Assembly (NCBI GenBank): GCA_035291225.1
Contig: DATDSO010000004.1
Span: forward strand, 331,130 to 395,129
Direction: 5' to 3'
Length of the DNA: 64,000 nt
Source of the DNA: an archaeon
Lineage (GTDB): Archaea; Aenigmatarchaeota; Aenigmatarchaeia; Aenigmatarchaeales; JACQIB01
Part shown: piece by piece, positions 44,915-59,710 of the stretch
Position numbering within the stretch: position 1 is the first letter of the stretch
How the letters are laid out: every line of letters begins with the position of its first letter
Program-made: the position numbers and the translations under genes
The notes under the pieces: generated by a model
The model's database searches: none
The model's input: only the letters and a program-made list of their open reading frames with translations
What the model was told of the DNA's origin: nothing

Positions 44915-45670
44915 ATGAAAATCAGAAAAAACGAACTTATTTTGCTTTCGGGAGGCGGCCGCAAATATTTAACATCCTGCGCGGGGAAATTTTCCTGTAA
45001 ATTCGGTTCAGTCAATTTAGACCTTTTTGTAGGGAAAAAATTTGGCATAAAAATAAAAATTGGAAAGGAAAAGTTTTCTGCTATTAAGCCAAATGTTCTT
45101 GATATTCTGAGATTTGCAAAACGCGGCCCGCAGGTTATTCTATCAAAAGATTCGTCTGCAATAGCTTCAGTAACAGGCTGTGGAAAGGGGTGGAAAGTTT
45201 TAGACGCCGGCTCAGGTTCGGGCTTCAATGCTATTTTTTTAGCAAATTTAGGATGTGAAGTTTTAACTGCAGAAAAGGACAAGAGGTTCTTTCGCTTGGC
45301 AGAAAGAAATATTTTGACTTCGAATAGTATTTCGCCTCTAAAAATACAAATAAAGAACTCCCCGGTTGAAAAACTCTTCAGAAAAGAACATTTTGATTTA
45401 ATAACTTTGGATCTGCAAAATTCTCAGAAACTTGTTAGGAAATCCTTTTCTGCTCTAAAGCCGGGGGGCTGGCTTGCTGTCTATGCATTACAATCGGAAG
45501 ATTTGCCAAGGATTTCTTCAGAGATAAAAAAAGTTTTTGGGAATTCAAAAATTTCTGAATTTCTTCAAAGGGATTGGCAGTTTGAAAAATTTGGAGATAA
45601 AACTTTTACTCGCCCGAAAACTTGGATGATGGGACATACGGGGTTTCTGATTTTCAGCAGAAAACAGTAG
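44915..45670 (+). CDS. trmI: tRNA (adenine-N1)-methyltransferase TrmI-like (GCD14 family)
   Basis: SAM-binding VLDAGSGSG and C-terminal RP...MGHTGFLIFSRK tail typical of TrmI. Confidence 0.7.
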   Translation: MKIRKNELILLSGGGRKYLTSCAGKFSCKFGSVNLDLFVGKKFGIKIKIGKEKFSAIKPNVLDILRFAKRGPQVILSKDSSAIASVTGCGKGWKVLDAGSGSGFNAIFLANLGCEVLTAEKDKRFFRLAERNILTSNSISPLKIQIKNSPVEKLFRKEHFDLITLDLQNSQKLVRKSFSALKPGGWLAVYALQSEDLPRISSEIKKVFGNSKISEFLQRDWQFEKFGDKTFTRPKTWMMGHTGFLIFSRKQ

Positions 45671-45727
45671 CTTTTTCTAACTAGACAAAAAATTGGTTTA
45701 TAAATTTATTGCGCAAAGCTTTCTTGC

Positions 45728-45916
45728 GGGCTCGTGGTATAGCTTGGTATTATTCGAGGTTATGTTGGAATTTTACCAGCACCTCAACGGGACCTCGCGA
45801 CCTGTGTTCAAACGGCCTTTTCTTTCATGGAAAGAAAAGAACCGCGGAAAAGAAAGATATTAAATCCAAAAAGGCAGATAGCCTTCGGATATATGAAAAT
45901 CACAGCGAGCCCACCA
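45728..45916 (+). tRNA. tRNA-Pro (anticodon CGG inferred) with two introns (33/34 and 59/60) and encoded CCA
   Basis: Acceptor GGGCUCG pairs CGAGCCC then A-CCA; U8, A14, G18G19; anticodon stem CGAGG/CCUCG; T-stem CUGUG/CACAG; introns 45762-45787 and 45813-45899 each flanked by a 4 bp helix with 3 nt bulges (BHB). Confidence 0.65.
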
Positions 45917-45947
45917 AGTATAAATAATCCAAATACAAAGCAAATTT

Positions 45948-46424
45948 ATGAAAGCTGAAGGAAAGTTATCCCGAATAAAAACTGGTTTAAAGGATGCCAG
46001 AAAAAGGGTCGGAGATTTTTCAGGGCGGCATACTTTCCTAGTATATGCGCTCCCGACCATTACCGGTATAGCGTTGGGATTTGCATATTCTGTCGCAGAT
46101 GGTTTTGAACGGATGAGCGAAGAAATCAGCAGAATGAATTTGCCTCAAACAAATATAGATGGTTTCACAAATCCGGATTACCCAAGCGTTTTTGAATACC
46201 TCAGATCATTGCTCATCGGAGAAAATGTCTCTGTTGGCTATGAGAATGGAATAACTTGCCCTTCAGATGGAGGGTGTTATGGGTGGGCTAAGTCTGTTTT
46301 TATGAACTCTCGAAATTACCATAGCAATATACCACCTCTCATTGGGGGATCGTCCGGAGCTGCAATATCGCTGGTTGGCGGATACAGCTGGGCAAGGAAT
46401 GATGAAGAATTGAAAAGAAGTTGA
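45948..46424 (+). CDS. Hypothetical protein with one TM segment (158 aa)
   Basis: Intact ORF; hydrophobic segment LVYALPTITGIALGFAY. Confidence 0.4.
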   Translation: MKAEGKLSRIKTGLKDARKRVGDFSGRHTFLVYALPTITGIALGFAYSVADGFERMSEEISRMNLPQTNIDGFTNPDYPSVFEYLRSLLIGENVSVGYENGITCPSDGGCYGWAKSVFMNSRNYHSNIPPLIGGSSGAAISLVGGYSWARNDEELKRS

Positions 46425-52286: not shown

Positions 52287-52568
52287 GGGCTCGTGGTCTA
52301 GTCCATCCCTTCTTTCTTTTTCCGAAAGAAGAGCTTCAAAAAAGAAAGAAGCGATAGGTTTTCGGAAGAAAGAAAAAGACGGATGGAGAAATTGGAATGA
52401 AGCGCCCGCGCTTCAGCACGGGAAGAGCTTCAACACAATGACGCGACGTTCGCAACGTCGAAGCCGTGGGTTCAAACCCAAGCCTTTTTCGTGAAAAAGG
52501 CTAGGGCTTATCCAAAAAAGCAGATAGCCGCTTCGCGGGTATATCAGAAATTCCCACCGAGTCCACCA
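52287..52568 (+). tRNA. tRNA-Ala (anticodon CGC) with T-loop intron and a long unresolved D-region insertion; encoded CCA
   Basis: Acceptor GGGCUCG/CGAGUCC with G3:U70, A73-CCA; anticodon arm CGACG-UUCGCAA-CGUCG (52444-52460); T-stem GUGGG/CCCAC split by 52477-52551; D-stem GUCU/UGAC split by about 135 nt. Confidence 0.6.
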
Positions 52569-55056: not shown

Positions 55057-55085
55057 TTTTTATTTCACCTGAAATAATTTCCAAT

Positions 55086-55129
55086 GGCTCGCGCGCAGAG
55101 CAAGCTCATGCGCGCTCGCTATTGATATG
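55086..55129. repeat. GC-rich intergenic repeat, copy 3 (30-73 nt upstream of aCPSF1 start)
   Basis: ggctcgcgcgcagagcaagctcatgcgcgctcgctattgatatg; shares ggctcgc...cagagc...gcgcgct(t)cgctattgat[ag]tg with 63226-63280. Confidence 0.55.
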
Positions 55130-55325
55130 TAAAAAATATCCCCAAAAATTCTGTATGCAAAAATGTTTTTATTTTTTTCTCAGTAAATTTCAAAAAATCG
55201 TACTAAAAATTTACGTGTATGAGATTTAGATTTGCTGTAGTCTGCTTCAAGTAATCAGAATTTTCTAAAAGAATAATTGCAGAGGGGATTTATAAAGATT
55301 AGCCACGGTTGAGACCGACGGGACG

Positions 55326-55362
55326 TTCCTTCTATATTTTCCTTCTATATTTCCTTCTATAT
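55326..55362. repeat. Three tandem direct repeats of ttccttctatat
   Basis: Units at 55326-55337, 55339-55350, 55351-55362. Confidence 0.7.
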
Positions 55363-55646
55363 ATTATCTCAAGAACAGGTCCCCTACCGGCACGACGCGC
55401 CTCACTACTAAATTTATAATACTCCAAGCCTCTATAAATTACCTTATCAGCTCCGGACAAGAAAAGCGCATTATCGTCCCTCCGAAGATTAGGTTGAACA
55501 ATGTATTTTAAAAAGAGGATATTAGCATTCCCACTGCCGAACAAATATTTTAGGACTCTGACCTCCTCTGGAGTTTTTCTCATTTAAATCATTACTAATA
55601 GAAACTAAAAGCATTTAAAGCTATCTGCCGGCGCAGAAATCCGTGT

Positions 55647-55681
55647 TTCTAAAATTAGAAAATGAAATTCTAATTTTAGAA
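55647..55681. terminator. Perfect 14 bp inverted repeat downstream of psmB (terminator or binding site)
   Basis: ttctaaaattagaa (55647-55660) and its reverse complement ttctaattttagaa (55668-55681), 7 nt spacer. Confidence 0.4.
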
Positions 55682-55703
55682 AAAGGAAAAGGTTGGATAA
55701 AAT

Positions 55704-58282: not shown

Positions 58283-59710
58283 TCAATAGCTCTTCGCAAA
58301 CATCACAACTTGCTTTGCGTCCTTCCCGCATTTCACGCATTTGGAAAATACTTTCTCGTTCTCCAAAGGTATGCAGGAAATTTTCGCGCCAGTTTCCTCT
58401 TTCACCTTATCTTCACATTCTCTTGAGCCGCACCAGCAGGCTTTCACGCGGTTGCCTTCAATATTTTTTTTCAGCTCATCATAAGTCTTTGCTGTTTTCG
58501 TTTTTTCAGCGGAAAATTTCTCAGCCTTTTCATAAAGATTTTTGTGGATATCCTTCAATAATTTTGAAATCTCTTTTTTCAATTCTGTTATTTTCACATT
58601 TTCTTTTTTTAGTTCATCTCTTCTGACAACAACAGCCTGTTTTTTCTCAATATCTTTCGGGCCAATCTCAACTCTAACAGGAACCCCTTTTAACTCCCAT
58701 TCATTGAACTTGAATCCGGGAGTGTAATTATCCCTATCATCCAAATGAACTCTGAAACTCTCCAAATCTTTTTTAATAGCTTCTGCGGCTTTCAAAACAT
58801 CTTTTTTGTTTTTCTCCTGGTAAATTGGAATAATAACAATTTGTATGGGAGCAATATTCGGCGGCAGAACCAAGCCTTTGTCATCTCCATGGTTCGCTAT
58901 CATCACTCCAATCATTCTTGTTGTTATTGCCCAGGTATTTTGGAAAGCGAATTTTATTTTTTCATCCTTATCCAAAAATTTTATGTCAAAAGCTTTTGCG
59001 AAATTCTGGCCGTCAAAATGCGCATCTGGCCCCTGAATTACTTTTCCATCAGGCATCATGAATTCAATTGTTTTTGTGTAAACAGCTCCGGCGAATTTTT
59101 CCTTGTCTGTTTTTTTTCCTTTTGTCCCTGGCAGTGCCAAAAATTCTCTGCAGAACCAGTCATACATTTCTAAAATATCCACGCATTCTTTTTCAGCTTC
59201 ATCTTGTGTTGCAAAAACCGTGTGCCCCTCATTCCACAAAAATTCCCTTGTTCTCAAAAAAGGTTTTGCGTGCTTGAACTCCCATCTCAAAACATTGTTC
59301 CACTGGTTTAATCTCATAGGCAAATCTCTCCAGCTTCTTATCCATTTGGAATAAGAATCATACATTATTGTTTCAGAAGTTGGCCTGATAGCAAGGCGCT
59401 CGCCAAGTTTTGTTTCTCCAGAATGTGTAACCCACGCAACTTCTGGAGTGAATCCTTCAAAGTGCGTTGCCTCTTTCATTAGCAAGCGTTCAGGAATCAA
59501 AAGAGGGAAGTAGGCATTTTTTATTCCCATTTCCTTGAATTTTCCATCAACAACTTTTTGAATCATTTCCCAAATTGCGTAAGCATACGGCTTGATTATT
59601 GTAAAGCCATCTACGCAAGCGTAATCGGCCAAGTCAGCTTTCTGCACCAACTCCAAGTACCATTCATTAAAATTTTCTTTTTTTGCTGTCATTCCAAGTT
59701 GTTCGCTCAT
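58283..59710 (-). CDS. proS: Prolyl-tRNA synthetase (archaeal/eukaryotic type)
   Basis: Class II aaRS motifs and C-terminal Cys-containing zinc-binding domain; 475 aa. Confidence 0.9.
   Translation of the reverse strand: MSEQLGMTAKKENFNEWYLELVQKADLADYACVDGFTIIKPYAYAIWEMIQKVVDGKFKEMGIKNAYFPLLIPERLLMKEATHFEGFTPEVAWVTHSGETKLGERLAIRPTSETIMYDSYSKWIRSWRDLPMRLNQWNNVLRWEFKHAKPFLRTREFLWNEGHTVFATQDEAEKECVDILEMYDWFCREFLALPGTKGKKTDKEKFAGAVYTKTIEFMMPDGKVIQGPDAHFDGQNFAKAFDIKFLDKDEKIKFAFQNTWAITTRMIGVMIANHGDDKGLVLPPNIAPIQIVIIPIYQEKNKKDVLKAAEAIKKDLESFRVHLDDRDNYTPGFKFNEWELKGVPVRVEIGPKDIEKKQAVVVRRDELKKENVKITELKKEISKLLKDIHKNLYEKAEKFSAEKTKTAKTYDELKKNIEGNRVKACWCGSRECEDKVKEETGAKISCIPLENEKVFSKCVKCGKDAKQVVMFAKSY

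Follow-up and report, generated by a model that had tools for sequence, protein, structure and literature searches.

A predicted tRNA-Pro(CGG) gene with two bulge-helix-bulge introns, both at non-canonical sites, in an Aenigmatarchaeota genome

Can a gene for a transfer RNA (tRNA) be present where the standard programs report none? The question is raised by a 189-nucleotide (nt) locus in contig DATDSO010000004.1 of assembly GCA_035291225.1, which comes from an archaeon of the Aenigmatarchaeota, a lineage of the DPANN archaea. We analysed a stretch of 64,000 nt around the locus, here called the window. ARAGORN detected no tRNA in the whole 64 kb of unspliced sequence, and Rfam returned nothing at its gathering thresholds and nothing tRNA-like even at E = 10 on positions 45600-46050. 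These negative results are uninformative, because the introns proposed here break the models on which both searches depend. The first-pass annotation of this DNA had read the locus as a proline tRNA gene with two introns and had regarded the two open reading frames (ORFs) that cover it on the forward strand (45693-45863 and 45709-45927) as spurious. Both ORFs exist mechanically, and the gene calls of the source contig list neither. The analysis described below leads us to conclude that the locus is very probably a functional tRNA-Pro(CGG) gene which, in its predicted structure, contains two bulge-helix-bulge (BHB) introns.

The case begins with the predicted mature product. The acceptor strands GGGCTCG (45728-45734) and CGAGCCC (45906-45912) pair perfectly across 178 nt and are followed by A73 (45913) and by the encoded CCA that ends the gene, at the coordinates originally proposed. 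Deletion of both introns leaves a 76-mer, GGGCTCGTGGTATAGCTTGGTATTATTCGAGGTTCGGGACCTCGCGACCTGTGTTCAAATCACAGCGAGCCCACCA, that is, 73 nt plus CCA, which ARAGORN identifies as tRNA-Pro(cgg). This molecule has a 7-nt anticodon loop, UUCGGGA (U33, then C34 G35 G36, then G37), the T-loop UUCAAAU, a 4-nt variable loop and A73. The features that the archaeal identity rules assign to tRNA-Pro, together with the general landmarks of a tRNA, are present in the spliced sequence, the ARAGORN drawing and the Rfam alignment: an NGG anticodon, G37, A73, G1:C72, U8, A14, G18G19, U33, U54U55C56 and A58. The sole irregularity is a U13.U22 mismatch, and this is shared with an intronless UGG isoacceptor (L007). 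An intronless ortholog that is identical to the spliced product (L008; see below) scores 54.1 bits against the Rfam tRNA model RF00005 (threshold 29, E = 2.4e-9) in an alignment that spans the full length of the model. Removal of the inserts from the locus therefore regains a canonical cloverleaf, directly by ARAGORN and through the identical L008 by Rfam. The cloverleaf that the Rfam model uses is the one drawn in the first-pass annotation, and this alignment is the closest available substitute for a covariance-model check of the exon structure.

The second line of evidence comes from the splice junctions. The archaeal BHB motif consists of a 4-base-pair (bp) helix, H, between two 3-nt bulges on opposite strands, with cleavage after the second nucleotide of each bulge; outer helices flank the bulges on the exon side (h) and on the intron side (h'). 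All possible pairs of cuts in the locus were scored for their fit to this motif. For intron 1, H is GAGG/CCUC with 4/4 pairs (45756-45759 with 45782-45785), the bulges are UU|A (45760-45762) and AA|C (45786-45788), and h' comprises 6 bp, UGUUGG/CCAGCA (45763-45768 with 45776-45781). For intron 2, H is UUCA/UGAA, again 4/4 (45807-45810 with 45894-45897), the bulges are AA|C (45811-45813) and AA|U (45898-45900), and the 5-bp T-stem serves as h (45802-45806 with 45901-45905). The scoring arrives at the same helices and bulges that the first-pass annotation had read from the sequence alone. The bulge and helix geometry is present at both introns. Intron 1 has h and h' as well and belongs to the strict class (hBHBh'), and intron 2, which lacks h', belongs to the relaxed class (hBH), a distinction that the first-pass annotation had not drawn. 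That annotation also singled out 33/34 as the non-canonical site; the placement stands and the wording needs amendment, since 59/60 is non-canonical too.

The boundary of intron 1 is unique, and that of intron 2 can slide along a run of AAA with no change in the product, with a good motif at 59/60 only. In 100,000 shuffles for each intron, a 4/4 H in register arose by chance in 3.8% of cases for intron 1 and in 1.7% for intron 2; when an h' of at least 6 bp was also required of intron 1, the chance fell to 3e-5. Among the 6,417 size-compatible combinations of BHB-like deletions, five yielded a full-length tRNA in ARAGORN, and of these five only the combination first proposed has two 4/4 H helices and 7-nt loops.

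The strongest support is provided by orthologs. We inspected the contigs that encode the closest homologs of the window's TrmI, the product of the gene just upstream of the locus (64-72% identical in BLASTP), and added one DNA-pattern scan each of a genome collection, with the 5' 22-mer as the query, and a metagenome collection. The TrmI homologs bear the name tRNA (adenine57-N1/adenine58-N1)-methyltransferase, and the sources of several are Aenigmatarchaeota metagenome-assembled genomes (MAGs). In the genome collection, which is made up of species representatives, the scan returned a single locus: an Aenigmatarchaeota groundwater MAG contains a tRNA-Pro(UGG) gene that has no intron and agrees in its acceptor, D and T arms. 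The metagenome scan likewise returned a single locus, an intronless CGG gene.

Among the tRNA-Pro genes found next to trmI (Table 1), two have no inserts and match the predicted spliced product at 76 of 76 positions. The 34 nt of exon 1 are the same in L003, L008 and L009, and exon 2 is identical to that of the intronless L008. Intron 1 is absent from L008, L010, L011 and L013, whereas L003 and L009 have it with base changes that are compatible with the motif; intron 2 is absent from L003, L008 and L013. Because L003/L004 carry the 33/34 intron only and L010 carries the 59/60 intron only, each boundary is confirmed separately: at the level of sequence, every proposed splice boundary is independently reproduced by a natural intron-free allele. 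Comparison with the tRNA-Pro genes of relatives had been suggested as a check, and the predicted exon/intron boundaries proved to be exactly those of the natural variants. Across the extracted orthologs, the exons differ from L008 by 0-5 nt, while TrmI identity among these species is about 65-85% (MAFFT alignment) and the introns differ freely. This near invariance of the exons next to a diverged protein and variable introns indicates purifying selection that acts on the tRNA-Pro exons only.

Table 1. Features of the window and tRNA-Pro orthologs located next to trmI; intron sites are given as tRNA positions, and c marks the complementary strand of a contig.
Feature	Location	Strand	Description
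tRNA-Pro(CGG) gene with encoded CCA (predicted)	45728-45916	+	189 nt; all three exons collinear, one strand
Exon 1	45728..45761	+	tRNA positions 1-33: acceptor 5' strand, D-arm, anticodon stem 5' strand, U32, U33
Intron 1	45762..45787	+	26 nt, at 33/34; strict hBHBh' motif
Exon 2	45788..45812	+	positions 34-59: anticodon CGG, G37, anticodon stem 3' strand, 4-nt variable loop, T-stem 5' strand, T-loop U54-A59
Intron 2	45813..45899	+	87 nt, at 59/60; relaxed hBH motif
Exon 3	45900..45916	+	U60, T-stem 3' strand, acceptor 3' strand, A73, genome-encoded CCA (45914-45916)
TATA-box-like promoter element TTTATAAAT	45697..45705	+	centred ~27 nt upstream of tRNA position 1
trmI (tRNA m1A57/58 methyltransferase)	44915..45670	+	Pfam methyltransferase matches; syntenic anchor, 57 nt upstream of the tRNA gene
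Archaeal-type prolyl-tRNA synthetase gene	58283-59710	-	12 kb from the tRNA-Pro gene
tRNA-Ile(GAU), encoded CCA	53123-52935	-	spliced 78-mer is tRNA-Ile(gat) by ARAGORN; unspliced gene missed by ARAGORN and Rfam
tRNA-Ala(CGC), probable, heavily interrupted	52287-52568	+	G3.U70; anticodon arm CGACG-UUCGCAA-CGUCG; encoded CCA
tRNA-Pro, L008 (JGI contig Ga0209541_10194686)	c1085-1010		no inserts; 76/76 identical to predicted spliced product
tRNA-Pro, L014	1550-1625		no inserts; 76/76 identical to predicted spliced product
tRNA-Pro, L003/L004	c3357-3257 (L003)		only a 25-nt intron at 33/34
tRNA-Pro, L010	2288-2418		only a 55-nt intron at 59/60
tRNA-Pro, L011	2288-2484		13-nt D-loop intron (17/17a); 108-nt intron at 59/60
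tRNA-Pro, L009	1309-1665		86-nt D-loop intron; 29-nt intron at 33/34; 166-nt T-arm insert
tRNA-Pro, L013	c1248-1054		106-nt D-loop intron (19/20); canonical 13-nt intron at 37/38
tRNA-Pro, L002			intron at 59/60; contig ends within the intron

A TATA-box-like element precedes the gene in the window, and a (T)TTATAAAT box is found at the same upstream distance in most of the listed tRNA-Pro orthologs, on either strand, with a diverged version in L013. This box is presumably the archaeal promoter of the gene. The tRNA-Pro gene lies directly downstream of trmI in all of these relatives, namely the window, L002, L003/L004, L008/L014, L009, L010, L011, L013 and L015. Its strand in L002, L003/L004, L013 and L015 is opposite to that in the window, L008/L014, L009, L010 and L011, a switch that corresponds to a local inversion of the tRNA-Pro gene alone together with its TATA box. 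Two further observations concern the same neighborhood. In the more distant relatives L005/L006 (c3950-3857; TrmI 53% identical), a piece downstream of trmI that ends ...TTCGGGACCGC...CAGCGAGCCCACCA contains a Pro(CGG)-like anticodon loop, a 3' acceptor strand and CCA. Its 5' acceptor partner is absent from the surrounding 400 nt, and the piece may belong to a gene with several introns, to a split tRNA or to one that has decayed. Directly downstream of the intronless tRNA-Pro of L008 and L014 (~c1003-882 and ~1632-1753, respectively), an interrupted tRNA gene, read by eye, resembles tRNA-Thr(GGU); it has a 13-nt intron at the canonical site 37/38, and its T-arm is 35 nt longer than usual.

How might the mature tRNA be produced from this locus? 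Under the model that we propose from the sequence and from analogy with known systems, the locus would be transcribed as a precursor of ~190 nt, the tRNA splicing endonuclease EndA would cut it at 45761|45762, 45787|45788, 45812|45813 and 45899|45900, and a ligase of the RtcB type would join the three exons. At intron 1, EndA would recognise the strict hBHBh' motif. Here nucleotides G28-G31, which form the 5' side of the anticodon stem, are paired to the intron rather than to positions 39-42, and C34 lies in the 3' bulge, such that the anticodon arm would form only once this intron has been excised. At intron 2, the enzyme would recognise the relaxed hBH motif, made of the T-stem and a helix between T-loop nucleotides U54-A57 and the intron; such a motif, a class that only EndAs of broad specificity accept, implies that the host EndA would be of this type, which is described for other DPANN archaea. 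The motifs of the two introns occupy separate parts of the RNA, and no order of cuts would therefore be required. A58, the target of the neighboring TrmI, sits in the 5' bulge of the intron-2 motif, and thus methylation by TrmI presumably takes place after splicing. Intron 2 itself folds into two internal hairpins.

Several observations weigh against this interpretation, and others are in its favor. The outer helix of intron 1 has only 3 bp (C27:G35, U26.G36 and U25.G37; 45753-45755 with 45789-45791), two of which are G.U, and intron 2 is devoid of an inner helix (h' = 0 bp), its 5' bulge opening into a multiloop. In favor of the motifs, the unconstrained minimum-free-energy fold essentially contains the intron-1 BHB, and forcing the individual motifs costs 1.1 kcal/mol for intron 1 and 3.9 kcal/mol for intron 2; against them, the fold with both motifs lies 7.5 kcal/mol above the minimum free energy (-51.9 versus -59.4). 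Three variants of the 33/34 intron are available, and in them each of the 35 cells of the BHB helices that could be scored is paired, with two wobble-compatible changes. This covariation is supportive but, drawn from three sequences, not statistically meaningful alone, and the shuffle control was non-discriminating. A double change in h' of L003 from G:C to A:U, the one compensatory pair of this kind, which MAFFT misaligned, was read directly from the sequences. Neither EndA nor RtcB was found by Pfam among the 25 window ORFs scanned, and a rough tblastn search of the window, with an M. jannaschii EndA sequence as the query, found no EndA. Finally, a host that also has a UGG isoacceptor might do without the CGG one, in which case weak expression would be tolerated.

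With these points in mind, we considered whether the inserts could have an origin or a fate other than BHB splicing. If the locus were a decaying pseudogene, the inserts would be junk that is never removed and the locus would make no functional tRNA. The failure of ARAGORN and Rfam to recognise a tRNA in the unspliced sequence would fit such decay, and the 166-nt T-arm insert of L009, for which no good BHB motif is apparent, suggests that some copies may be degenerating. However, the exons are identical to those of an intronless ortholog at 76 of 76 positions despite ~68% identity of the neighboring TrmI, both inserts are placed exactly in BHB geometry, and conservation extends to the promoter box. 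Insertions at random would hardly have 3-nt bulges around a 4-bp helix at both of their junctions. We therefore regard decay as very improbable. Nor do we give weight to removal of the inserts by a route that bypasses EndA and BHB recognition, whether by self-splicing or by joining of separately transcribed pieces in trans. The relaxed motif of intron 2 and the lack of EndA in the scanned ORFs would fit such a route, and split tRNAs do exist in Nanoarchaeota (PMC4090602). Nevertheless, group I and group II introns exceed ~200 nt and contain a conserved ribozyme core, so that inserts as short as 26 and 87 nt are much too small for either group, and no intron family of Rfam matches around the locus even at E = 10. 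The exons are collinear and contiguous behind a single upstream TATA box, unlike those of a split or permuted gene, and a 59/60 intron with an hBH motif is a proven EndA substrate in another DPANN archaeon. Such a route thus seems most unlikely.

A different division of the locus into exons is scarcely credible. The possibility arises from the intron mode of ARAGORN, which, given the sequence without intron 2, reports a tRNA-His(AUG) with a 26-nt intron beside the anticodon, and from an alternative BHB register shifted by one base (cuts after gene positions 35 and 59; H 4/4, h 4, h' 5), which produces a 78-nt 'tRNA-Arg(ACG)'. A molecule with the A34 histidine anticodon, no G-1 and A73 is not a histidine tRNA under the identity rules, and the intronless orthologs, with the loop UUCGGGA and the anticodon CGG, exclude this candidate. 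The canonical 37/38 placement has no BHB motif when the sequence is read directly, and the shifted register was rejected for its 9-nt anticodon loop. We accordingly retain the reading as tRNA-Pro(CGG), interrupted at 33/34 and 59/60, in what follows.

The tRNA-Pro gene does not appear to be the only hidden tRNA gene in the window. A scan for 7-bp acceptor stems followed by N-CCA recovered two more (Table 1). The tRNA-Ile(GAU) gene has a 27-nt intron in the D-loop at 21/22 (53100-53074; H TGGT/GCCA, 4/4; h' 8 bp). Its second intron, of 84 nt (53035-52952), lies at 59/60, with 3/4 pairs in H and the T-stem as h. The locus that is probably tRNA-Ala(CGC) has a 75-nt intron at 59/60 (52477-52551) and a likely 45-nt intron at 24/25 (52397-52441; H ATTG/CAAT, 4/4). 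Its 5' half contains at least two inserts, including at least one more in the D-loop, and many exon models of that half are compatible with ARAGORN.

The introns of these genes are related to one another. The 59/60 introns of the window's tRNA-Ala and of the L011 tRNA-Pro (2360-2429) share 92.9% identity over 70 nt, and the T-loop intron of the window's tRNA-Ile is 88% identical over 51 nt to the distal part of the T-arm insert in the L009 tRNA-Pro (1598-1648). Intron 2 of the window's tRNA-Pro is homologous to the 59/60 introns of the L011 tRNA-Pro and the window's tRNA-Ala in its 3' half only, that is, in the 3' hairpin (33 of 35-36 nt). Segments of the intron families also lie at L009 1483-1524 and L002 3297-3331. 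The 166-nt insert of L009, in which no single BHB motif is good, looks like two fused intron families; it may represent two introns or belong to a gene in decay. Given that homologous introns reside in tRNA genes of different identity, vertical inheritance alone is insufficient to explain their distribution, which suggests that introns move or that T-arms recombine with one another, a proposal already made for Thermoproteales.

The turnover of these introns also seems to be fast. In a neighbor-joining tree of TrmI, the intron-free L014/L008 are sisters to L009, whose gene carries at least three inserts, at 85% TrmI identity and with identical exons, and the 33/34 intron is patchily distributed on the tree. 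This pattern indicates rapid gain or precise loss of tRNA-Pro introns. Altogether, the number of inserts in the orthologous tRNA-Pro(CGG) genes varies between none and three or more, and the inserts use four or five sites (17/17a, 19/20, 33/34, 37/38 and 59/60). At the T-loop site 59/60, different tRNA genes (Pro, Ala and Ile) contain members of at least two intron families. On balance, we lean towards the view that BHB introns form an active, mobile population in this lineage of Aenigmatarchaeota. If the recent gains and precise losses are real, the lineage would be a natural system for catching the mechanism by which BHB introns are gained and lost.

The present findings have some practical bearing on annotation. 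Standard annotation misses the tRNA-Pro gene and at least two neighboring tRNA genes, three in 64 kb. Because introns hide tRNA genes in this way, the tRNA sets of such DPANN genomes would look incomplete, spurious ORFs would be called, and estimates of completeness and coding content would be skewed. Misreading is a further hazard: ARAGORN reports tRNA-His(atg) for genes that carry the 33/34 intron, and on L010 (2288-2360) it produces a truncated 73-nt tRNA-Pro whose 3' half is taken from the intron. Wrong tRNA identities may thus enter the automatic annotation of genomes of this kind. A separate feature of the window is a short tandem repeat, ttccttctatat, in ~3 copies at 55328-55367, within a 650-nt stretch (55057-55703) that has no ORF of at least 90 amino acids and lies between an FttA/aCPSF1-like gene and a proteasome subunit gene.

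Work from 2003-2011 onwards has made multiple BHB introns at non-canonical positions known from Crenarchaeota, Thaumarchaeota, Nanoarchaeota and ARMAN-2. The tRNA-Pro gene adds to this known class of BHB-interrupted archaeal tRNA genes, and its novelty is modest. It extends heavily disrupted tRNA genes to Aenigmatarchaeota, for which our literature searches found no description of tRNA introns. The variants that differ by the presence or absence of introns in close relatives are clean material on gain, movement and precise loss of protein-spliced tRNA introns, and the question of gain and loss has been open since the work on Thermoproteales. The insertion site of intron 1 also deserves mention. 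The position 33/34, between U33 and the wobble base, is missing from the list of common sites in a 2014 review, an open-ended list that does include 59/60 (PMC4090602), and, if the structure predicted here is correct, it could be an insertion site rarely if ever documented.

Multi-intron tRNA genes with non-canonical BHB introns have been described in Thermoproteales, Thaumarchaeota and ARMAN-2 (Marck & Grosjean 2003 and Sugahara 2008, as cited in PMC4090602 and PMC8450103), and tRNAscan-SE 2.0 models non-canonical introns and reports up to three per gene (PMC8450103). Like these genes, the present one is missed by standard tRNA finders and has short BHB-bounded introns at sites such as 59/60; unlike them, it belongs to a host from the Aenigmatarchaeota, with a GC content of ~41%. 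The closest parallel to intron 2 is the 13-nt intron at 59/60 of pre-tRNA-Cys(GCA) in ARMAN-2 (Micrarchaeum), which has a relaxed hBH motif and is cleaved in vitro by the epsilon2 EndA (PMC3239211). The two introns have in common the site, the relaxed motif, a DPANN host and the T-stem as outer helix, the last inferred in the case of ARMAN-2. However, intron 2 is far longer, at 87 nt with two internal hairpins. Among DPANN archaea, EndAs with the L3 loop correlate with disrupted tRNA genes (PMC5829648).

For intron 1, the nearest counterpart is the tRNA-Pro(CGG) of Aeropyrum pernix, for which PMC4307357 describes a non-canonical anticodon-loop intron whose splicing was confirmed on RNA. The two genes share the isoacceptor and a BHB intron of the anticodon loop off the conventional site. 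Unlike the present host, A. pernix is a crenarchaeon with an (alpha-beta)2 EndA, and any relation between the two genes would be one of analogy. The apparent movement of introns, for its part, recalls Thermoproteales, whose translocatable tRNA introns (Fujishima et al. 2010, as cited in PMC4090602 and PMC4390854) likewise include near-identical copies in different tRNA genes. The Aenigmatarchaeota introns differ from that case in their DPANN lineage, in that the copies so far occupy the same T-loop position, and in that close relatives differ by the presence or absence of introns.

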